Notes: generated by a model not told the origin, from the sequence alone. 43,437 nt of DNA from a virus (IMGVR_UViG_2563366824_000005:1-43437); one strand, 5' to 3'. Shown: positions 1 through 29,932, counted from the stretch's first letter. Program-made: numbers and translations.

Positions 1-309
1 TCACCCACGATTAACCAACAGCCAGACCAGCAGACACGCCACCACCGGCACAGCAAAATCCATCAGGCTTGCCACATCCCACGCGCGCGGATCAAAACCG
101 CCCCACCACGGCATATTCATTCGCTTGCCATGCCCGAACATTTCGATCCAGCGATATTCTGCCTGGGTGTGTTCACGCGCAATGAAGAACGTACAACCGG
201 CTATCGCCCCGTAAGCCCAGTTCCCGGTAAAAAGACCAATCAGTAGCTGCGCAGCCACAGCACAAAGCGCATGAAGGAAAGGTGTTATATCCATTTTCAT
301 CCCACCCAA
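1..309 (-). CDS. small multi-pass membrane protein of unknown function, moron-like gene downstream of tail-fibre genes
   Basis: ORF with stop at 1-3; candidate ATG starts at 309, 300 or 294; hydrophobic Gly/Ala/Trp-rich segments; lies directly after hairpin 311-332. Confidence 0.45.
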   Translation of the reverse strand: MGGMKMDITPFLHALCAVAAQLLIGLFTGNWAYGAIAGCTFFIAREHTQAEYRWIEMFGHGKRMNMPWWGGFDPRAWDVASLMDFAVPVVACLLVWLLVNRG

Positions 310-332
310 TAAAACGGGGCGCTCGGCCCCTT
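308..332 (-). terminator. putative intrinsic terminator after tail-fibre gene
   Basis: minus-strand GGGGC-CGA-GCCCC hairpin followed by GTTTTATT, just after the stop of ORF 337-1377. Confidence 0.5.
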
Positions 333-336
333 AATA

Positions 337-1377
337 TTATTTAGACGCAAGCGCCGCATCAATTGCAGATAATCTTTGTCTTAATTCTGCGTTTTCTTCT
401 TCCAGTGCTGTTATTCTGTCGTCTGACTCTCTGGCTACCTGAACAAGCAAGCCAGTAACACCAGAATAATCTACTGTGTAATAACGTTCACCTTCTTCAC
501 CTTCCGATCCGCTCGCACCGTCCTGATATTTCATTACGGAACCTACAACTTCTGGGATTGCTTCCAGAGCTTCCTGTGCAATGACACCAGCATAGGGCAT
601 ACCGTTTTCTTTAAGCGTGTATGTATAGCCGTTCATTTTACGGATGCGGTCGGTTGCATTATCGATCACCTGAATGTTGTCTTTCAGATCCCGGTCGGAA
701 TGCTGGTTAAATGCGGTGGCATGACATGCACCATTAACGCTTAACATATAGGTGTTATCGGTATTTTTCTGCGCATAGAACATATAAGCGCCACCATCAA
801 CACCGACTTCATAAACAACAGGACGGCTGGAGTTGCCCCACAATTGAGCAGTAACACCAGCATAAGCGGTTCCCTGTGTGTTTAATGTCATGGTTGACCC
901 ATGATTGGCATATTTGATCTGTAATGTGTCGGTGTAATCAAATTTAATAAGCGCGTTACTTCCACGCTTGCTGTATGACATAAGGCAGTTACCCATTTTG
1001 AGGTATCCGCTGTCACCGGGAAAAATCATCGTACCGCCATAAAGGTTGGTAAAGTCCCAGCAAATGTTTGTCCCGTTATCGTTCAGGTTAAGGCGCGCCA
1101 TTGCGTTACCTGGACTGTCTATCCATTTTTTGAGGTATAGTTCGCAATACGCATCCTCAACACCTGCCGTCCTGTGAGTTGAGCGGAGTTTTCTCCCAAA
1201 TATAGCTCCGCTAGTTGGTAATACCTGCTGATACCATGAAGCAGACCAGTCACCAACGATTTCATCTTTGCTGTCTACATATAATTTTGTTGCGTAGCTT
1301 CCTTGATCGTTTTTTAATTTGCTAACGTCGGATTTTAGCGTTTTGATGTCATCAGGAATTACTGTCGATGTAGCCAT
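337..1377 (-). CDS. tail fibre / receptor-binding protein with C-terminal intramolecular chaperone (peptidase S74-like) domain
   Basis: 346 aa; C-terminal segment HSDRDLKDNIQVID...GVIAQEALEAIPEVV plus coiled coil resembles auto-cleaving chaperone domains of endosialidase/T5-type fibres; recalled from memory. Confidence 0.55.
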   Translation of the reverse strand: MATSTVIPDDIKTLKSDVSKLKNDQGSYATKLYVDSKDEIVGDWSASWYQQVLPTSGAIFGRKLRSTHRTAGVEDAYCELYLKKWIDSPGNAMARLNLNDNGTNICWDFTNLYGGTMIFPGDSGYLKMGNCLMSYSKRGSNALIKFDYTDTLQIKYANHGSTMTLNTQGTAYAGVTAQLWGNSSRPVVYEVGVDGGAYMFYAQKNTDNTYMLSVNGACHATAFNQHSDRDLKDNIQVIDNATDRIRKMNGYTYTLKENGMPYAGVIAQEALEAIPEVVGSVMKYQDGASGSEGEEGERYYTVDYSGVTGLLVQVARESDDRITALEEENAELRQRLSAIDAALASK

Positions 1378-1386
1378 TTTTCTTCC

Positions 1387-1668
1387 TCACATCCAGCCAC
1401 GAAGTTGATGCTCAACAGCAACCACGTATTCATCGAATAATGACGATATTTGCGAATCATTAATGATGCGCACGTTTACAAAATATCCGTCTTCCTTAAC
1501 ACATACCGGTTCGCCATCTTCAGTTAGTTCTCCGGTTTCTTTGTACACGTTACCTATCACGTCAATAAGAATATCATCCTGCATCGACTCGTCATCATAA
1601 TAGCCAGTACTCTCCATAAAGGCCGAAAAGTCGGCCCTGTCGGCAAATTTGAGTGTTAAATCTTTCAT
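1387..1668 (-). CDS. hypothetical protein, possibly tail-fibre accessory/assembly protein
   Basis: 93 aa acidic protein; ATG overlaps stf stop (TAATG), suggesting translational coupling; no recognised family. Confidence 0.4.
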   Translation of the reverse strand: MKDLTLKFADRADFSAFMESTGYYDDESMQDDILIDVIGNVYKETGELTEDGEPVCVKEDGYFVNVRIINDSQISSLFDEYVVAVEHQLRGWM

Positions 1669-4040
1669 TAGATTGACTCCCCCACCTGAGCATCAGTCAA
1701 TGCCTTGTGCCATATTCTGAAATTCCTGACATGACCAAATAAATGACGTAACCCGGCTGTAGTCTGGCCTCCAATACGGATAATTGCGGTGTTCTGAATA
1801 CAGGACCATGTGGTTTTTGTTTCGCTGGATATATGCCCGTTACTTACTGAGCACGTAGACTGCTCTGACTTTACACGCATCCCCATAACCATTTTTTCAA
1901 GCGATGCGTTTTCGTTTACCCGTCTGTTAGCTCCTCCAATATCGCAATAAGGAAATCCGTCGTAATCTGTTGAACGACCGAAGCCAAGAATAATAGCCGC
2001 TCCGGTTTGATGACCGCCGGTATCAAAAACACGTGGCGCTGCATTTGGCGTTTTATACCAGTTCTTATGTACCTCACAAAGAACCGTAAAAGGAAGATTA
2101 TAAAGATTATTCTTAATTGGAACTGTAACTATATCGCTTGCGCGGGTCGCCGCCGTCGCTCCTGATATAATAAAAGATGATACACAAGGCCCATCTTCTA
2201 CTTGTGGGGTGGCCAGATAAATATAGTCACCAGATACGGTTGCCCCGCTCTGCTTAGGAGAATACTGTATCTGAGAGCCTATTTTAAACTCCCCATCAAT
2301 TGCCTGAATTGTTGCCTCTGCAAAAATCCATCCGGTAGCTTCGTCCTTTCTGACTCTCGCTGTAATTCTTGAGGCAGCACCGCCTGTCATATTAATTTCA
2401 AGCGTTTGTGTATCAATATACGCATCACCAAGAAAAGTTGTTGCGCTACCGTCATATTTATCAAACCGGATACGCAACCTTACCTGCAGTTCTGTTTTAA
2501 AACGACATGAGGTTGTCACGTGTTTATTATCGCCTGAGACATCAACTGACTTTGTTGCAGCAATTGATGCCATATTAATGGCTGAGGTTTGCCCAATCAG
2601 AGAATCGTTGCAGACAAACTTTCCATAGGTAAAACCAAAATTATCCGTCCCTGTTTCGGGCACATCCATATTTGACGATCGCCCCCAACTGGCAGGGCTT
2701 TCCGAATTGAGCATGTAGTTTGTTCTTTGCCCCTCAATAAGCAGGCCATCACGTTCAAATCGTGGCTCGTCAATGGCAGCCTCTGTCAGCACACCAGATT
2801 TGTTAATATAGGTTGCTTTCGATGCACGTTTAAACTTAACAATCTTGTCGCCAGGCATCGTTATTTCATCGTCACCAATAACAATTTTTTTATATGACGG
2901 CGAAAAGCCCGTAATCATATCCAGTGAATCGTTAAACGGTATCCACACATCAGGCAGTGGCTGTAAGACATATTTATACGGCTCTGCTGCCTGACTTGCA
3001 TACTCTCTGGCTGCGTCTTCACTTGCTTTAGCTGCTGTCTGGCTTGCTGCCGATGCTTTCGCCGAGTTCGCCGCTGCAGTCTCGCTTGTCTTTGCATTGG
3101 TTTCACTGGTTTTTGCCGCTTTTTGACTGTTGGCTGATGCAGTGGCAGAAGCAGCCGCCGCGCTTGCAGAACCAGCTGCCGCGCTCTCGCTTTGGGCTGC
3201 TGCAACCTGGCTGTTTTTCGCCGCAGTTTCGCTGGCTTTGGCATTCGTTTCGCTGGTCTTCGCTGCCGTCTGGCTGGACTTTGCGTTAGTTTCACTCGTC
3301 TTCGCTGCTTTCTGGCTGTTAGCCGCAGCAGTTGCTGCTCCAGCTGCTGAAGTCGCAGAACCGGCTGCTGCGCTCTCGCTCTCAGCTGCTGCAGTCTGGC
3401 TGTTTTTCGCCGCAGTTTCACTGGCTTTGGCATTCGTTTCGCTGGCCTTCGCTGCCGTCTGGCTGGACTTTGCGTTGGTTTCGCTCGTCTTTGCGGCTGT
3501 CTCGCTATTTTTCGCGTTGGTTTCTGATTTTTTAGCTGCTGTCGCGGAATTTGCCGATGCAGTCTGCGAGGCCGCTGCCGCCTGTGCGCTGTTAGCTGCA
3601 TTCGTTTCTGAGTTTTTCGCCGCGTTCTTCGATGATGCCGCTGCAGTTTCGGATTTCTTTGCCGCCGCTGCGCTCTGAGAGGCGGCTTCAGAGTTGCGTG
3701 CCGCTTCTTCCACCATTACCTCAAAACGACGCAATGCCTCCGGCATGACATCCTCTTCCGTCATGGCACCGAGAAAATCATTCAGCGTGCCTGGTCTGGA
3801 ACCTTCATAGACGGTAATGGTCCCGGCATGTGAAGGCGGAAAACCTTCAACCAGCAGGGTGACGCTGTACTGGCCATACTCAACATCCATGCTGTAACGC
3901 CCGGCTTCATCCGGATTTTCAGAGGCCACCGTATTCACCAGTACCGTGGTGCTGTTACGCTTTGCTTTGAGCTGAATAGTGCAGTTCTGTATTGGTTTTC
4001 CTGCACCGTCTTTCAGCACGCCTGAAATCTGTACTGCCAT
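1668..4040 (-). CDS. stf: side tail fibre protein (Stf-like) with Ser/Ala/Thr-rich repeat region and lectin-like C-terminal domain
   Basis: N-terminus MAVQISGVLKDGAGKPIQNCTIQLKA... matches lambda/K-12 Stf N-terminal domain; start taken at third Met of track ORF; C-terminus ends ...FGHVRNFRIWHKALTDAQV (LamG/concanavalin-like pattern). Confidence 0.8.
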   Translation of the reverse strand: MAVQISGVLKDGAGKPIQNCTIQLKAKRNSTTVLVNTVASENPDEAGRYSMDVEYGQYSVTLLVEGFPPSHAGTITVYEGSRPGTLNDFLGAMTEEDVMPEALRRFEVMVEEAARNSEAASQSAAAAKKSETAAASSKNAAKNSETNAANSAQAAAASQTASANSATAAKKSETNAKNSETAAKTSETNAKSSQTAAKASETNAKASETAAKNSQTAAAESESAAAGSATSAAGAATAAANSQKAAKTSETNAKSSQTAAKTSETNAKASETAAKNSQVAAAQSESAAAGSASAAAASATASANSQKAAKTSETNAKTSETAAANSAKASAASQTAAKASEDAAREYASQAAEPYKYVLQPLPDVWIPFNDSLDMITGFSPSYKKIVIGDDEITMPGDKIVKFKRASKATYINKSGVLTEAAIDEPRFERDGLLIEGQRTNYMLNSESPASWGRSSNMDVPETGTDNFGFTYGKFVCNDSLIGQTSAINMASIAATKSVDVSGDNKHVTTSCRFKTELQVRLRIRFDKYDGSATTFLGDAYIDTQTLEINMTGGAASRITARVRKDEATGWIFAEATIQAIDGEFKIGSQIQYSPKQSGATVSGDYIYLATPQVEDGPCVSSFIISGATAATRASDIVTVPIKNNLYNLPFTVLCEVHKNWYKTPNAAPRVFDTGGHQTGAAIILGFGRSTDYDGFPYCDIGGANRRVNENASLEKMVMGMRVKSEQSTCSVSNGHISSETKTTWSCIQNTAIIRIGGQTTAGLRHLFGHVRNFRIWHKALTDAQVGESI
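3000..3700. repeat. tandem repeats of about 189 bp inside stf, encoding AAKTSETNAK-type repeats
   Basis: motif ctgtttttcgccgcagtttc recurs at 3211 and 3400 (189 bp apart) with flanking near-identical sequence; more diverged copies on either side. Confidence 0.7.
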
Positions 4041-4098
4041 ATTCACTCCACAAATAAAAAAGGCGCCATTTCTGGCGCCCGTATTTGGGTTATAAAAC

Positions 4099-7000
4099 TC
4101 AACTGATACTGATACCGGCTGTTGATTTCTTCATCACGACAACAAGAAGGTCGCTGATACTGGTCGTTGGCGTCCAGTTATTAGCACCATATGAAGAAAC
4201 ATTGAAAGTCAGGGTGACATGACCGTGTCCGGCAGGCATATCAATGACGGATGAAAATACCCTGCTGACATCCGTCGCGGGTTGCTGAAAGATTTCCTGT
4301 CCGTTCTTCAGCACCTGCAGCTTACAGGTTGAATACCAGTATGACTGTTGGTTATTGCTGTTGAAGTTTTCATGCTTACCACCGTGAAACAGAACGGGTG
4401 GGATTACTATCTGACGGTCAAAAGCCTGGTCATCGTACACAGTGACCGTAATTGTACCGCTGGCATAACTGCCATTTCTCGGAAAGGCTTTTCCCACCGT
4501 TTTGACAATATCACCTTCAATCTGGTTGGCAGACAGTTTTCCCAGAATCCGACAGTTCTGGTTAATCGTGACATTATTGAGCGTCCCGGAGTTCGCATTC
4601 ACGTTACCGCTGATATCGGCATTTTTCGCCGTCAGCCGCCCGTCCGGTGTCAGGGAAAATACCGGCGGATTGCCGCCACTGGTAATGGTGGGAGCCGTCA
4701 GATACTTCAGGAACACTTCGTTCATGAATATCTGGTTACCCTGCGCCACAAACATCGGAGTTTCATTCCCGTTTGCCGGGTCAATAAACGCGATACGGTT
4801 AGCGGCAACCAGGAACTGGCTCAGTTTACCTTCCTCCGTATCCTCCATACTAAGGCCAAGCCCCGCGACATAATGCCTGCCGTCTTCGGTCTGCTCAATT
4901 TTGACGCCCCACATGGCATTCCATTTATCGTTGGCGTCCTTCCACTCTTTCGAAAACTCCTCCAGTTTGCTGGCGTTATCCTCCGTCAGCTCGACTTTTT
5001 CCAGCAGCTCCTTGCCGAGATGGGATTCGGTTATCTGGCCTTTGAAAAAATCCAGGTAACCTTCCGCATCATCGCTCGCCCGACCGACAGCCTCCACGAA
5101 TGTCGATTTGCCGACGGTGTTCACACTGCGAACGTAAAAATAATAATCATGACCCGGCTTAATATTGATACTGGCAGCTATCCAGTACAGCGCCGTGCCA
5201 AGATAGCGGGCTGTGGTTTCAACCTGCCTGATATCCGCAATCCGCTTTTCCGAGAACCAGAACTCAAACTGTACCGTCGGATCATAAACGGCAAGATGCG
5301 GCGTGGCGGTTATCTGAAAATAGCCCGGCGTCAGCTCAATCCTCGACGGCGCTGCCGGTGCGGCAATCCGGAACGATACCGATGCCGGATCGCCCTGCTG
5401 CCCCCAGGCATTTGCCGCCCGGACTGTCAGTCTGTAGTTCCCCAGCGCCAGTTGCGTGAAACGGTATGTGGTTTCCGTCGTCCTGGCCGTGCTGACCAGC
5501 CGCTCACTGCCGTCATCCGCTGCCACGGTCAGGCGAAGCATAAAGCTCACGCCCTTCACCACCTTCGGTGTGTCCCAGCGCGCCAGCACCTGATATTCCC
5601 CGCTGTCTGCAGTGACTTCTGCGGTCAGGTGCTGCACCGCTGGCGGCGTGACACCATTCACCGTGCCACTCTGTTCGCCGTCAAAGTGCGCCCCGTTATC
5701 CACGATGGCCTCTTTTTCCGGCACATGCTGCACGGCGGTGATGGCATACGTGCCGTCGTCGTTCTCACGGATACTCACGCAGCGGAACAGTCGCTGGCGC
5801 AGCGTCGGCAGCTTCAGCCCCCATACGCTGTATTCAGCAACACCGTCAGGAACACGGCTCACTTTTACCTTCACGCCGTCGGTGACGGACTGAACCTCCA
5901 CGCTGACCGGATTGCCACTTCCGTCAACCAGGCTTATCAGCGTGGTACCGGAGGATGGCAGCGTGATTTCACGGTCGAGCGTCAGCGTCCGGGTCTGGCT
6001 GTTCACCGCCAGCACGCGACCACCGGTGCTGATACCGGCATAGTCATCATCGCAGATTTCAATAACATCGCCCGGCACATGGCGAAGCCCTTCTGCGCCC
6101 ACGCTGAAATCCACGGTCTGCGTTTCCAGCAGTTCCGTTTTAATCAGCCACAGCCCGGCGCGGTGTGCCTGCCCCCGGCTGGTACAGCCAAAGGCATCCA
6201 TCTTCGTGACATTACGACCGTAACGGGCAATGGCCTGCGTATCTTCAACAAGCTCTGTCGCCGTCTCCCAGCCGTTGTTCGGGTCAATCCAGTTCACCTC
6301 AACGGCATTATGGCGGTCCTTCAGGGCGCTGAAGCTGTAGCGGAACGGCGCGCCATCATCCGGCATCACCACATTACTGCGGTTATAGGTCCACACCTTA
6401 TCCGACGGTCGGTCCTGCACGAACGTCAGCGTCTGTCCGTTCCATACCGGCATACAGCGCATCGCCGAGCAGAAATCACTGAGCACATCCCACGCCTTGC
6501 GCTGTGTGGTCAGGTACGCATTACAGGTGATGCGCGGCTCCGTGCCGCCAAAGCCGTCCGGCACTGACTGGTCGCAGTACTGGCCGATGACATACAGCGC
6601 CCATTTGTCCACATCCGCCGCACCAAGACGTTTCCCCATGCCGTAGCGCGGGTGGGTCAGCATATCCCACAGACACCAGGCCATGTTGTTGCTGTATGCT
6701 GGTTTTAACGTTCCGTCCCAGATACCGCTGTATTGTCGCGTCTGCGGGTTATAGTTCGACGGCACCTGCAGAATGCGCCCGCGAAGATGATAATTACGGC
6801 TCACCTGCTGGCTGCCGAACTGCTCCGAGTCCACCTGTACGCCGACCAGTGCCGTGTTCGGGTAGCACTGTTTCACATCGATGATCTCGGTGTATGACGA
6901 CCAGAGCGTTTTGTTCTGCAGCTGGTCTGTGGTGCTGTCCGGCGTCATCCTGCGCATCCGGATATTGAACGGGCGCGGCGGCAGGTTATCCACCACCACC

Positions 7001-7497
7001 GAGGCCAGATACTGCGAGGTGGTTTTGCCCTTAATGGTGATGTCTTTTTCCGTCACCCAGCCACCGTTACGCTGTATCTGAACCAGCAGGCGGACTTCCG
7101 ACGGATTCCTGTCTCCCTTTGAGGTGGTTTCCACCAGTGCCTGTACACCGAAGGTAAAGCGCAGACGGTCGATGTTTGCCGACGTGATGGTCCGGGTGAT
7201 CGGCGTTTCATATTTCACTTCCGTACCGAGCACCGTCTCGGAACCGGAGGATTCAAATCCCTCCGGCGGTGTCTGCTCCTGCTCACCTGCCCGGAACACC
7301 ACCGTGACACCGGAGATGTTGGTATTCCCCTCACTGTCCAGCACCGGTGTACTGTTCAGCAGCACGCTTTTTAATCCATCCACCGGACCTTCAATCGGCC
7401 CTTCGCTGATGGCATCGATCACACTCAGCAGCTGCGTGGATTTCAGGTTATCCTTCGCTTCGCGCGGGGTATGCCCCTTACTGCTGCCTTTACCCAT
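4099..7497 (-). CDS. J: tail tip host-specificity protein J
   Basis: 1132 aa, same length and gene position as lambda J. Confidence 0.9.
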
Positions 7498-9574: not shown

Positions 9575-9903
9575 CAGTTCACCACCTGTTCAAACTCTGC
9601 GCTGAACTCAACACGCAGCATACTGACCCGCGACGACCATTTTGCGCAGGTCACCTTTATCTGCCGCCACTCATAAGGCGGCGTCCACAGAAAGGCCTTC
9701 CAGCCCCCGTGCTCTTCCAGAAACGACTCCAGCGCCGTGGCCTCCCAACGGGGGACAGAAAGCGTCACGCTGTACGTTTTCAGGTTGGCATTCAGCCCGG
9801 CAGGCGCTCGCTGGGAATAGCCATCACCAAAGCGCACCTTTCTTACAGAAGGGGCCGAAGCCACATCCATACCGGGTTTCACTTTCCAGCGGAAGGTTTT
9901 CAT
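9574..9903 (-). CDS. M: minor tail protein M
   Basis: 109 aa, lambda M length and position. Confidence 0.85.
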   Translation of the reverse strand: MKTFRWKVKPGMDVASAPSVRKVRFGDGYSQRAPAGLNANLKTYSVTLSVPRWEATALESFLEEHGGWKAFLWTPPYEWRQIKVTCAKWSSRVSMLRVEFSAEFEQVVN

Positions 9904-12461
9904 CGTCCACCTCCGGAGAACAGGCCACCATCACGCATCTGTGTCTGAATTTCATCACGGGCACCCTTGCGGGCCATGTCATACACTGCCTTCATCATCT
10001 GTGGACCTGGCAGACCATTCGTACCGTCGTTCTGAATCACCACGTGATTGTTCTGATTAAAATTAATGCCTTCAGCCCGCCGCATCTGCGCCGGACTTCC
10101 GGCACCGCCCACATAACCACCTTCCGCATAGCCCCGCATCAGGCGGTACAGGTTGCCGACACCAATCCGGCTGGTTGCCTCCTTCGTGAAGACAAATTCA
10201 CCACGGTGAACAATCCCCGCTGGCTCATATTTGCCGCCGGTTCCCGTAAATCCCCCGGTCGCAAAATGGAATTTCGCCGCAGCGGCCTGAATGGCTGTAC
10301 CGCCTGACGCGGATGCTCCACCACTGGCAGCACCGCCAATGGCGCTGCCGATACTCCCGACAATCCCCACCATTGCCTGCTTAAGCAGAATTTCTGTCAT
10401 CATGGACAGCACGGAACGGGTGAAGCTGCGCCAGTTCTGCTCACTGCCGGTCAGCATCGCCGCCATATTCTGTGCAATACCATCAAAGGTCTGCGTGGCT
10501 GCACTTTTAACCTGCGACATACTGTCCGTGGCGCTCTCTTCCCACTCACTCCAGCCGGACTTCAGGCCTGCCATCCAGCTCCCGCGAAGCTGGTCTTCAG
10601 CCGCCCAGGTCTTTTTCTGCTCTGACATGACGTTATTCAGCGCCAGCGGATTATCGCCATACTGTTCCTTCAGGCGCTGTTCCGTGGCTTCCCGTTCTGC
10701 CTGCCGGTCAGTCAGCCCCCGGCTTTTCGCATCAATGGCGGCCCGTTTTGCCCGTTGCTGCTGTGCGAATTTATCCGCCTGCTGCGCCAGCGCGTTCAGG
10801 CGCTCCTGATACGTAACCTTGTCGCCAAGTGCAGCCAGCTGGCGTTTGTACTCCAGCGTCTCATCTTTATGCGCCAGCAGGGATTTCTCCTGTGCAGACA
10901 GCTGGCGACGTTGCGCCGCCTCCTCCAGTACCGCGAACTGACTCTCCGCCTTCCACAAATCCCGGCGCTGCTGGCTGATTTTCTCATTCGCTCCGGCATG
11001 CTTCTCCAGCGTCCGGAGTTCTGCCTGAAGCGTCAGCAGGGCAGCATGAGCACTGTCTTCCTGACGATCGCCCGCAGACACCTTCACGCCGGACTGTTTC
11101 GGCTTTTTCAGCGTCGCTTCATAATCCTTTTTCGCCGCCGCCATCAGCGTGTTGTAATCCGCCTGCAGGATTTTCCCGTCTTTCAGTGCCTTGTTCAGTT
11201 CTTCCTGACGGGCGGTATATTTCTCCAGCGGCGTCTGCAGCCGTTCGTAAGCCTTCTGCGCCTCTTCGGTATATTTCAGCCGTGACGCTTCGGTATCGCT
11301 CTGCTGCTGCGCATTTTTGTCCTGTTGAGTCTGCTGCTCAGCCTGCTTTCGGGCGGCTTCAAGCGCAAGACGGGCCTTTTCACGATCATCCCAGTAACGC
11401 GCCCGCGCTTCATCGTTAACAAAATAATCATCCTTGCGCAGATTCCAGATGTCGTCTGCTTTCTTAAACGCAGCCTCTGCCTTAATCAGCATCTCCTGCG
11501 CGGTATCAGGACGACCAATATCCAGCACCGCATCCCACATGGATTTGAATGCCCGCGCTGTCCTGTCTGCCCAGGTCTCCAGCGTGCCCATGTTCTCTTT
11601 CAGGCGGCGGGTCTGGTCATCAAACCCTTTCGTTGCGGCTTCGTTCGCCGCCTGCAATGCCCCGGCTTCATCGCCGGAACGCTGCAACTGAGCAACATAC
11701 GCAATCTGCTCCGCCGTCACGTTATGGAACTGGCGCGCCATCGCCGTCAGCCCCGACGTCGGGTCAGTGGTCAGCTTCCCGAAGGCTTCAGCGACCTTGT
11801 CCACCTCCACGCCGGATGCAGAAGAGAAACGCGCCACACTCTGGCTGATGGACGCAATCTGAGCCTCACCGCTTACCCCCGCCTTAACCAGTGCACTGAG
11901 TGACTCGCTGGTCTGGTTAAACGTCAGCCCTGCCGCCTGCCCGGCTCTGGACAGGACCAGCATACGATCTGCCGTCAGACCCGACTGATTACCGGAAAGG
12001 ACCAGCGTTTTGTTGAAATCGGACAGGGTTGAGTTACCCTGATACCAGGCATACGCCAGCGCACCGGTCGCCACCGCCAGCGAGGTGGCCCCGACCATCG
12101 GCAGGGTGATCGCACCGGCAAGCCCCCGGAACATGGGGATCATCCCGCCGAAGGAGTCCTTAACCTGACCACCCTGTTGCAGCAGGATCAGCCACGGGCT
12201 TTGCCCGCCTGCAAGCTGCGTGGCCACGTCGGTGAACTGTGCAGGCAGCATACGCATGGCGGCTTTATACTGCCCGACGGAAATCCCCGCTTTCTGTGCA
12301 GCCAGTGCCTGTCGGCTCAGCGACTGTTCAACGACTGCCGCTGTTTTTTTCGCATCACTTTCCGTACCGGAAAAATGACGCCTGACTCTGGCCATCTGCT
12401 CGTCAAATCTGGCCGCATCCAGACTTAAATCAACGACCAGATCGCCTACCGGTTCAGCCAT
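9900..12461 (-). CDS. H: tail tape measure protein H
   Basis: 853 aa, N-terminus MAEPVGDLVVDLSLDAARFDEQMARVRRHF as in lambda H. Confidence 0.9.
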   Translation of the reverse strand: MAEPVGDLVVDLSLDAARFDEQMARVRRHFSGTESDAKKTAAVVEQSLSRQALAAQKAGISVGQYKAAMRMLPAQFTDVATQLAGGQSPWLILLQQGGQVKDSFGGMIPMFRGLAGAITLPMVGATSLAVATGALAYAWYQGNSTLSDFNKTLVLSGNQSGLTADRMLVLSRAGQAAGLTFNQTSESLSALVKAGVSGEAQIASISQSVARFSSASGVEVDKVAEAFGKLTTDPTSGLTAMARQFHNVTAEQIAYVAQLQRSGDEAGALQAANEAATKGFDDQTRRLKENMGTLETWADRTARAFKSMWDAVLDIGRPDTAQEMLIKAEAAFKKADDIWNLRKDDYFVNDEARARYWDDREKARLALEAARKQAEQQTQQDKNAQQQSDTEASRLKYTEEAQKAYERLQTPLEKYTARQEELNKALKDGKILQADYNTLMAAAKKDYEATLKKPKQSGVKVSAGDRQEDSAHAALLTLQAELRTLEKHAGANEKISQQRRDLWKAESQFAVLEEAAQRRQLSAQEKSLLAHKDETLEYKRQLAALGDKVTYQERLNALAQQADKFAQQQRAKRAAIDAKSRGLTDRQAEREATEQRLKEQYGDNPLALNNVMSEQKKTWAAEDQLRGSWMAGLKSGWSEWEESATDSMSQVKSAATQTFDGIAQNMAAMLTGSEQNWRSFTRSVLSMMTEILLKQAMVGIVGSIGSAIGGAASGGASASGGTAIQAAAAKFHFATGGFTGTGGKYEPAGIVHRGEFVFTKEATSRIGVGNLYRLMRGYAEGGYVGGAGSPAQMRRAEGINFNQNNHVVIQNDGTNGLPGPQMMKAVYDMARKGARDEIQTQMRDGGLFSGGGR

Positions 12462-12499: not shown

Positions 12500-14131
<1,632 letters not shown>

Positions 14132-14150
<19 letters not shown>

Positions 14151-29673: not shown

Positions 29674-29750
29674 TGGCGCGCTGTACTGGATTCGAACCAG
29701 TGACCGATTGCTTAGAAGGCAATTGCTCTGTCCGGCTGAGCTAACAACGC
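29674..29750 (-). tRNA. tRNA-Arg (anticodon UCU)
   Basis: 77-nt cloverleaf GCGTTGTTAGCTCAGCCGGACAGAGCAATTGCCTTCTAAGCAATCGGTCACTGGTTCGAATCCAGTACAGCGCGCCA with encoded CCA. Confidence 0.85.
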
Positions 29751-29856: not shown

Positions 29857-29932
29857 TGGTGGCCCTTGCTGGATTTGAACCAGCGACCTGGCGATTATGA
29901 GTCGCTCGCTCTCACCACTGAGCTAAAGGACC
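29857..29932 (-). tRNA. tRNA-Ile2 (anticodon CAU, ileX/ileZ-like; would be called tRNA-Met by anticodon alone)
   Basis: 76-nt cloverleaf GGTCCTTTAGCTCAGTGGTGAGAGCGAGCGACTCATAATCGCCAGGTCGCTGGTTCAAATCCAGCAAGGGCCACCA, resembles E. coli ileX. Confidence 0.8.

Follow-up and report, generated by a model that had tools for sequence, protein, structure and literature searches.

The region from position 337 to 4040 of a 43,437-nucleotide viral sequence (IMGVR_UViG_2563366824_000005:1-43437; we refer to the whole stretch as the window and count positions from its first letter) probably encodes a lambdoid side tail fibre of two tiers, one proximal and one distal, derived from a three-gene mobile cassette. 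The genes are stf, which encodes the side tail fibre itself, an open reading frame (ORF) for a protein of 93 amino acids, and a gene for a second fibre protein of 346 amino acids; ORF calling placed the whole module, together with the upstream gene J, on the minus strand. An initial annotation made from the sequence had described this region as an unusual tail-fibre module and had missed that the three genes form one conserved cassette in which the second fibre is most likely mounted on the first. The module is a lambdoid member of an already published architecture and not a new kind of fibre. The new point is that the variant of a small hairpin in D1, the neck domain of the Stf tip, tracks the presence of the second fibre.

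The stf gene (1668-4040) encodes 790 amino acids plus a stop codon and matches phrog_1419 from end to end with 1485 bits; RefSeq annotates an identical coding sequence, and the exact protein is present in public data. Its most plausible start is the ATG at 4040, which follows a GGAG ribosome-binding site and gives a protein beginning MAVQISG, while the GTG at 4046 chosen by the ORF finder sits upstream of that site and was rejected as an upstream extension. The TAA stop of stf overlaps the ATG of the next ORF as TAATG. This ORF (1387-1668, phrog_1361) encodes the acidic 93-amino-acid protein, and the ATG of the second fibre gene (337-1377, 346 amino acids plus stop, matching phrog_4563 end to end in a cluster of 2,132 members) lies 9 nt past its stop. 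The arrangement points to tight translational coupling of all three genes. The N-terminal virion-anchor domain of Stf (approximately residues 1-100, positions 3741-4040) is recognized by PF08400 (phage_tail_N, prophage tail fibre N-terminal) with E=7.6e-66 and 220.6 bits against a cut-off of 26.6, and residues 3-96 match the PDB entries 9e7m/9mgh, described as 'Tail fiber protein', with E=9e-49. Searches against Pfam, PHROG and NCBIfam returned no Phage_fiber_2 or gp37-like match in Stf and no Caudo_TAP (Tfa) match in the downstream ORFs. Several elements of the initial annotation are borne out by these results, namely the conserved N-terminal domain of Stf, the small coupled ORF followed by a 346-amino-acid protein, and a tip unlike that of the lambda Stf/Tfa module.

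We surveyed 80 viral contigs carrying the Stf tip, the C-terminal 428 residues of the protein (Stf-C). A homologue of the 93-amino-acid protein is encoded directly after Stf-C at every analysed locus with enough downstream sequence, and the small ORFs of two distant cassettes (92 amino acids) are 37-50% identical to it; the protein appears to be an obligate partner of the Stf-C module. The order Stf-C, 92-93-amino-acid ORF and second fibre with a characteristic N-terminal peptide, which we call the plug, recurs in lambdoid phages, in Queuovirinae, in T5-like phages and behind an unrelated fibre N-terminus with a Phage_fiber_2 repeat. One T5-like contig encodes, after LtfC, a 783-amino-acid fibre that shares the tip with Stf, a 92-amino-acid ORF and a 326-amino-acid S74 protein in that order, and a further contig encodes a 646-amino-acid fibre with the shared tip, a 92-amino-acid ORF and a 335-amino-acid protein. 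Seventeen isolated phages (T1-like, Queuovirinae and lambdoid) were retrieved by the tip search as well as by the search with the plug peptide, and in each of them the plug starts about 290 nt past the end of the tip; for the T1-like phages the comparison covers Stf-C and the plug motif downstream of it. At least five unrelated distal parts are found behind one plug: the 346-amino-acid fibre of the window, a fibre of 234 amino acids, a gp34-like fibre of 340 amino acids with Tfa, T-shaped fibres of 574/583 amino acids, and fibres of 326/335 amino acids. Taken together, the three genes form one conserved mobile cassette that moves between phage families.

Two of these arrangements deserve separate description. 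In one locus (L049, 1295-5512) the tip and a 92-amino-acid ORF are joined to a completely different fibre N-terminus (MSKLLFTMTDAGRQ..., with the Phage_fiber_2 repeat), and downstream of them lies a plug-bearing 340-amino-acid fibre that contains a T4 Gp34_trimer domain and has a Tfa chaperone of its own. This locus is a striking example of free recombination among cassette parts. The 234-amino-acid second fibre is encoded by about 12 prophage loci (L026 2905-3609; L025, L029, L030, L041, L072-L079), where the same plug is followed by an S74 domain from residue 116, so that the protein would mature to a stub of about 115 residues with almost no receptor-binding part.

Domain-wise comparison of identities showed that the most conserved part of the tip is D1, a small beta neck (residues 362-445, positions 2706-2957). 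Inside it lies the hairpin SYKKIVIGDDEITMPGDKIVKFKRAS (residues 381-404), which occurs in two main variants among the surveyed loci. Variant A, ..SYKKIVIGDDEITMPGDK(I/V)VKFKRAS.. (..DDEITMPGDK..), is accompanied by a plug-bearing second fibre in 65 of 65 loci, a count that includes one locus missed by the motif pattern and confirmed by eye. Variant B, ..GYKKVKIGDNVVQVASDKQVNFSRAS.. (..VVQVASDK..), is the form found in phage 21; none of its 15 loci has a second fibre, and a membrane-protein ORF comes directly after the small ORF. In the structural model of the tip described below, the hairpin has a predicted local distance difference test score (pLDDT) of about 75, against about 95 elsewhere, which would be consistent with an exposed element in need of a partner. 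The association of hairpin and second fibre suggests a plug-and-socket joint, with the hairpin as the candidate socket.

The second fibre consists of three parts. The first 40 residues (1258-1377) comprise a putative N-terminal adaptor peptide and a short heptad-like stalk (MATSTVIPDDIKTLKSDVSKLK...), which are conserved while the rest of the protein diverges. The beta-rich, presumptive receptor-binding part (residues 41-226, positions 700-1257) varies between alleles in the homologue alignment, and residues 227-346 (340-699) form an S74 intramolecular chaperone domain. Homologues share the N-terminus M(A/V)T-x-T-x-IP-x-DI-x-x-LK, followed by a variable count of heptad-like units and a variable beta-rich middle. 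We detected no second receptor-binding domain in this 346-residue protein. The S74-like chaperone domain that the initial annotation had proposed for it is confirmed by PF13884 (Peptidase_S74, residues 227-278, E=4.8e-14, 52.8 bits against a cut-off of 22). A profile built from 20 homologues, down to 38% identity, matches the chaperone of S16 gp37 (6f45, E=3.4e-8) and the MYRF chaperone domain, and its positions 173-222 match the T4 gp34 repeat with E of about 5e-6. Residues S227, D228 and K232 (SDRDLK) are nearly invariant across the 20 homologues. S74 intramolecular chaperones promote trimer folding and then cleave themselves off, and the spacing within SDRDLK is that of the Ser-Lys dyad of the S74 family, as in endosialidase and T5 pb1. 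The putative dyad Ser227/Lys232 (S-D-x-x-x-K) is conserved in fibre 2, and by analogy with the family the protein would cleave itself at Ser227 to leave a mature fibre of about 226 residues.

Prediction of the structure of the tip gave different results depending on the alignment. With 47 close homologues (76-98% identical) AlphaFold2 returned a mean pLDDT of 53.8, poor for D1 and D3; this model was superseded by one built on an alignment of 56 diverse representatives, with a pLDDT of 92.8 and a predicted template modelling score of 0.89 for the 428 residues, in which three parts are distinguished. D1 is followed by D2, a concanavalin A (ConA)-like beta-sandwich and the most variable domain (residues 446-620, positions 2181-2705), and by D3, a second beta-sandwich (residues 621-790, positions 1671-2180, pLDDT >90). 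D3 ends in GHVRNFRIWHKALTDAQV, which we take to resemble a LamG_3 motif. Foldseek assigned a ConA-like fold to the tip with matches spanning D2 and D3, the best fold matches being non-catalytic carbohydrate-binding domains, and many phage proteins in BFVD that bear the annotation 'Concanavalin A-like lectin/glucanases superfamily' match the two-domain unit as a whole. According to the model, the tip consists of curved two-sheet jelly-roll beta-sandwiches of the ConA/LamG/pentraxin type. The lectin-like C-terminus of the initial annotation therefore stands as far as structure prediction and fold search are concerned, but Pfam detected only the N-terminal anchor in Stf and no LamG, ConA or Laminin_G family at E<=0.1, and the resemblance to LamG would lie in the predicted fold and not in sequence-level family membership.

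At the level of sequence, residues 436-636 match NF048003 (GTA_spike_fiber, phage head spike fiber domain) with E=2.5e-13 and 51 bits against a cut-off of 36, in an alignment that spans positions 1-181 of the 182 in the profile. With an exhaustive HMMER search we recovered 2,068 cluster representatives matching the tip at E<=1e-3, and many of these homologues align across all 428 residues at 30-50% identity and lie at the C-terminus of fibres of 500-1,500 amino acids. Homology to the capsule-binding fibre of the gene transfer agent RcGTA and structural likeness to carbohydrate-binding modules suggest that D2 and D3 bind sugar. In distant cassettes D1 is 80-92% and D2 46-66% identical to the window (D2 46-53% where D1 is 80-92%), and the variability of D2 is the pattern expected of a receptor-binding surface. 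Because the phage 21 tip is 93% identical to that of the window in D2 but 46% identical in D3, the two domains appear to recombine separately. We also considered a diversity-generating retroelement aimed at the lectin-like domain, and rejected it: no reverse transcriptase or template repeat is present near the cassette. The reverse transcriptase in a related genome belongs to a group II intron inside an insertion sequence (IS) and not to such an element.

Heptad layout and self-offset analysis identified, between anchor and tip, a shaft (residues 101-352, positions 2985-3740) in which 36 Ser/Ala-rich heptads of the type xS(E/Q)T(A/N)AK follow one another without a break; its periodicity suggests a trimeric coiled coil. 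The best protein self-offset is 63 residues, or nine heptads, and Tandem Repeats Finder reported the corresponding period of 189 bp at positions 3166-3506 (1.8 copies, 90% matches, no indels, with nested periods of 21 and 42 bp). The 189-bp tandem repeats described by the initial annotation are real in their period, but at 90% identity they are not near-identical, and the array does not extend over 3000-3700; the repeat is a diverged nine-heptad duplication inside a long heptad shaft, whose 7-residue periodicity spans 2985-3740. The expected change of length was seen when alleles were compared. Stf alleles with tips 96-100% identical have total lengths of 685, 709, 727/728, 742 and 790 residues; the 727/728-residue alleles, 97-98% identical to the Stf of the window, are without exactly one 63-residue block. 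Anchor-to-tip spacings of 153, 167, 174, 216, 230 and 279 residues, all 6 mod 7, account for 72 of 89 protein clusters, the remaining 17 having other registers. Because the spacings share one register and a 63-residue block is present or absent, shaft length varies between alleles in whole heptads. Unequal recombination between 21-bp and 189-bp repeats would fit as the source of these alleles. A recent or rare expansion was rejected, since the 790/791-residue allele is widespread and its two units have diverged by 10%. Ala/Leu-rich ORFs on the plus strand antisense to the heptads (e.g. 3130-3678, 182 amino acids, and shorter ones) are most likely artefacts of repeat composition and not genes.

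The closest described counterpart is found in the T5-like phage IrisVonRoten (Bas32). Humolli et al. 2025 (PMC11990801) describe its Gp24 as a distal 'T-shaped' fibre, attached to the proximal fibre Gp22 in AlphaFold models, and assign the C-terminus of Gp22 a 'galectin-like domain' that is possibly an extra receptor-binding domain; that paper does not discuss the small protein or a socket. We found that Gp22, Gp23 and Gp24 are homologous to the three genes of the window and occur in the same order: the C-terminus of Gp22 is 63% identical to Stf-C across all 428 residues, Gp23 is a 92-residue homologue of the 93-amino-acid protein, and Gp24 begins MVTKTVIPTDITKLK and ends in an S74 domain, as fibre 2 does. 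The N-terminus M-x-T-x-T-x-IP-x-DI and the three-gene order of the IrisVonRoten-type cassette are thus both present in the window. The systems differ in the anchor, which is of the T5 LtfA type with LtfC in IrisVonRoten and of the lambda PF08400 type in the window, in the distal fibre, which has 574 residues and two receptor-binding domains in IrisVonRoten and 346 residues in the window, and in the D1 hairpin, of which IrisVonRoten has a third variant.

From these data we propose how the particle may be built. Trimers of Stf would anchor to the tail tip by their lambda-type PF08400 domain, as homology suggests, and the 36 heptads, presumably a coiled coil, would serve as a spacer of adjustable length. 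The D1 neck would carry D2 and D3, which may bind a surface glycan such as O-antigen, lipopolysaccharide core or capsule. The N-terminal peptide of fibre 2 (MATSTVIPDDI..LK) would plug into the Stf tip, most likely at the hairpin of residues 381-404, while its S74 chaperone would drive trimer folding and then release itself at Ser227 of SDRDLK. The 93-amino-acid protein would be a dedicated partner of the tip, either a candidate chaperone replacing Tfa or a small structural adaptor, and this is the most tentative of our assignments. Each side fibre of such a particle would combine two different receptor-binding activities.

Several observations weigh against this proposal. IrisVonRoten has a third hairpin variant yet still carries a distal fibre, and because of this the hairpin may not be the contact. 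The split of 65 against 15 loci largely reflects a few related prophage lineages and not 80 independent events, and the shared ancestry of E. coli prophages inflates the co-occurrence counts in general. Docking of fibre 2 on Stf is suggested by co-occurrence and by the published model of the IrisVonRoten homologues. The coiled-coil state of the shaft is suggested by periodicity only. In the Stf tip we identified neither a sugar-binding or metal site nor a ligand, and ConA-like folds are also used for protein-protein contacts and by glycanases. The 93-amino-acid protein has no match in Pfam or NCBIfam, and sequence and profile searches of the PDB with it returned only noise. Finally, an IS3-family element with two ORFs (12508-13721, minus strand; 115 amino acids with HTH_Tnp_1 and 348 amino acids with rve) separates the tail assembly gene T (13728-14150) from the tape-measure gene (9900-12461). 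This insertion may have a polar effect on the tail genes; the prophage may thus be defective, and in this host assembly of the fibres may never take place.

In one alternative the fibres are independent: the 346-amino-acid protein would attach by itself to the tail tip (at J, at the hub or elsewhere) and share only an operon with Stf, whose lectin-like tip would be the sole distal end. Loci of the phage 21 type, which work with Stf-C and the small ORF and have no second fibre, agree with this view, as do the IrisVonRoten hairpin and the reliance of the docking proposal on co-occurrence. However, the plug peptide travels with Stf-C across unrelated tail tips (lambda-like, T1-like, T5-like and those with a different fibre N-terminus), and its only constant partners there are Stf-C and the 93-amino-acid protein. 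Moreover, Pfam recognizes no tail-anchor domain in fibre 2, and the published model puts its IrisVonRoten homologue on the proximal fibre. We therefore regard independent attachment as unlikely.

Alternatively, the tandem beta-sandwich of Stf could be mainly a structural hub for the distal fibre and not recognize a receptor, or the 93-amino-acid protein could be the true adaptor between the fibres. The high conservation of D1 agrees with a hub, ConA-like domains are able to mediate protein-protein contacts, and the small protein is always present and has an IrisVonRoten homologue annotated as 'tail fiber protein'. On the other hand, D2-D3 and the 93-amino-acid gene are retained in 15 of the 15 variant B loci, all without a second fibre, which argues for a function independent of fibre 2. 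D2 and D3 also undergo recombination independently of each other, and their variability far exceeds that of D1, as is the pattern for receptor-binding surfaces; both the best fold matches and the homology to the capsule-binding GTA fibre point to carbohydrate. We regard the hub or adaptor reading as rather improbable. It is very improbable that the ConA-like domains are enzymatic, as a GH16-type glycanase or lyase (a depolymerase) cutting through surface polysaccharide, since no glycoside-hydrolase family was matched in Pfam or NCBIfam and no catalytic motif was identified in these domains. A two-tier fibre with a lectin-like proximal tip and a docked distal fibre thus remains the reading that we prefer.

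Two-protein branched lateral fibres have been established genetically for LtfA/LtfB of DT57C and gp14/gp15 of phiEco32 (Golomidova 2016, PMC4728585; Ayala 2023, PMC10713586), and lateral fibres of small siphoviruses may be made of one or several proteins (Maffei et al. 2021, PMC8594841). In DT57C and phiEco32 an anchored fibre likewise carries a second fibre by its N-terminal ~45 residues, which results in two receptor specificities, both fibres have C-terminal chaperone domains, and the Ala-rich shaft of LtfA has a weak match to the shaft of Stf. The docking site in DT57C, however, is located mid-shaft (LtfA 223-471) and not at a C-terminal lectin-like tip, and no partner like the 93-amino-acid protein has been described in either phage. 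A tblastn search with the 39-residue N-terminus of fibre 2 retrieved 60 phage records, with DT57C and phiEco32 not among them, although its sensitivity is limited, as it also missed the motif-bearing IrisVonRoten. Identity of the docking pair with LtfA/LtfB is not supported by this search, and the pair may well be a different one.

The Stf of phage lambda (Ur-lambda) shares with the window the N-terminal anchor, the position after J and a side-fibre role in initial reversible adsorption. The C-terminal half is replaced in the window: in place of a T4 gp37-like tip and Tfa (Caudo_TAP) there are the ConA-like tandem, the 93-amino-acid protein and the second fibre, and lom is absent. The head spike fibre of RcGTA (rcc01080), after which NF048003 is named, is beta-rich and binds capsular polysaccharide (PMC10218006). 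Residues 436-636 of Stf belong to its family, and both are beta-rich, lectin-like appendages; the RcGTA fibre is anchored by a short N-terminal peptide, sits as a spike on the capsid vertices of a gene transfer agent, and is without a coiled-coil shaft or a second fibre. With the S74 chaperones of endosialidase K1F, T5 pb1 and S16 gp37, fibre 2 shares PF13884, the SD...K dyad motif and a C-terminal helix, and it differs from these systems in being very short (a predicted ~226 residues when mature) and in having a plug peptide instead of a virion anchor.

The neighbourhood of the cassette is that of a lambdoid tail locus. J, the tail tip attachment protein (4099-7497, minus strand, 1132 amino acids, six GpJ-specific Pfam domains with E of 1e-35 to 1e-43), is the upstream neighbour and lies outside the cassette. 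From the end of J to the stf ATG there are 58 nt, which contain a terminator-like GC-rich hairpin with a T-run (4061-4080, minus strand; the equivalent site of phage 21 is annotated as a terminator) and the GGAG site, with no Ail/Lom ORF. J is thus followed directly by stf with no lom, as the initial annotation stated. Because an insertion annotated as Ail/Lom, about 680 bp long, occupies this site in near-identical prophages and phage 21 is also without lom, the absence is a common polymorphism. Past the second fibre gene there is another terminator-like GC hairpin (316-330, minus strand), and then a gene for a small predicted membrane protein (1-309, minus strand, phrog_1443), which is the downstream neighbour of both cassette types and whose counterpart in phage 21 is annotated as a membrane protein with two transmembrane domains. 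This two-transmembrane-domain protein is present in most lambdoid loci surveyed and always lies 3' of the fibre cassette, with or without a second fibre. In a related genome a 3' remnant of tfa lies just past the point corresponding to the window edge (locus L087, 44239-44358), which suggests that a lambda-type stf-tfa tip was exchanged for the cassette by recombination. In phage 21 (locus L002, 1-2909) the sitABCD iron/manganese transporter operon (moron cargo) follows the fibre region, where the prophage of the window ends.

The window as a whole is a lambdoid prophage that for most of its length shows 99-100% identity to a prophage of E. coli WP8-S18-ESBL-07; the latter sits between the ydfABCD/dicB region and diguanylate cyclase/zinT. 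In a near-identical prophage (NZ_AP022261) the IS3-family element is itself interrupted by a group II intron (ltrA), and a DUF968 gene is disrupted by an IS21; neither insertion is present in the window. Downstream of the antiterminator gene there are two tRNA genes on the minus strand (29674-29750 and 29857-29932), one for Arg-TCT and one with a CAT anticodon. The latter is called Met by ARAGORN and Ile by RefSeq in a related genome, a disagreement probably due to lysidine modification.

The fibre region cannot be called unusual, as the initial annotation had done. Stf in its exact 790-residue form occurs on 163 contigs, and clustering at 90% identity places it among 4,554 members, represented by a protein of 791 residues. 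The 4.4-kb region is found with at least 80% query coverage in 364 of 5,426 complete E. coli genomes, with partial matches in 4,904, and is 100% identical in several chromosomes. Phages Tritos, PhiR63_1, HannyBb and 2G7b share the cassette at 98% identity; a literature search found no paper on HannyBb or IdasGreatGrand. The absence of lom is common as well, and the IrisVonRoten cassette has been published.

As a bolder extension, to which we give somewhat less than even chances, the D1 hairpin and the fibre-2 peptide might be a universal plug-and-socket, with the 93-amino-acid protein as an unrecognised chaperone or adaptor. At least five lineages (lambdoid, T1-like, Queuovirinae, T5-like and the fibre with a different N-terminus) would use it to swap distal fibres independently of the proximal tip, and loss of the socket, as in variant B of phage 21, would be the mark of single-tier fibres.

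For the window itself, the outcome is mostly a clean annotation and not a discovery. The added value is modest and consists of unifying the cassette across families, of the apparently obligate 93-amino-acid partner and of the predictive hairpin. The cassette is encountered very commonly among both the prophages of E. coli and the BASEL-type model phages. For the annotation and engineering of dual-specificity fibres it would be useful that the lambdoid, T1-like, Queuovirinae and T5-like versions can be treated as one exchangeable unit, that the 93-amino-acid partner always accompanies the lectin-like tip, and that a small hairpin predicts the second fibre. Side and lateral fibres set which surface glycans of E. 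coli serve for first contact, and thereby bear on the spread of prophages and on the host range of therapeutic phages.

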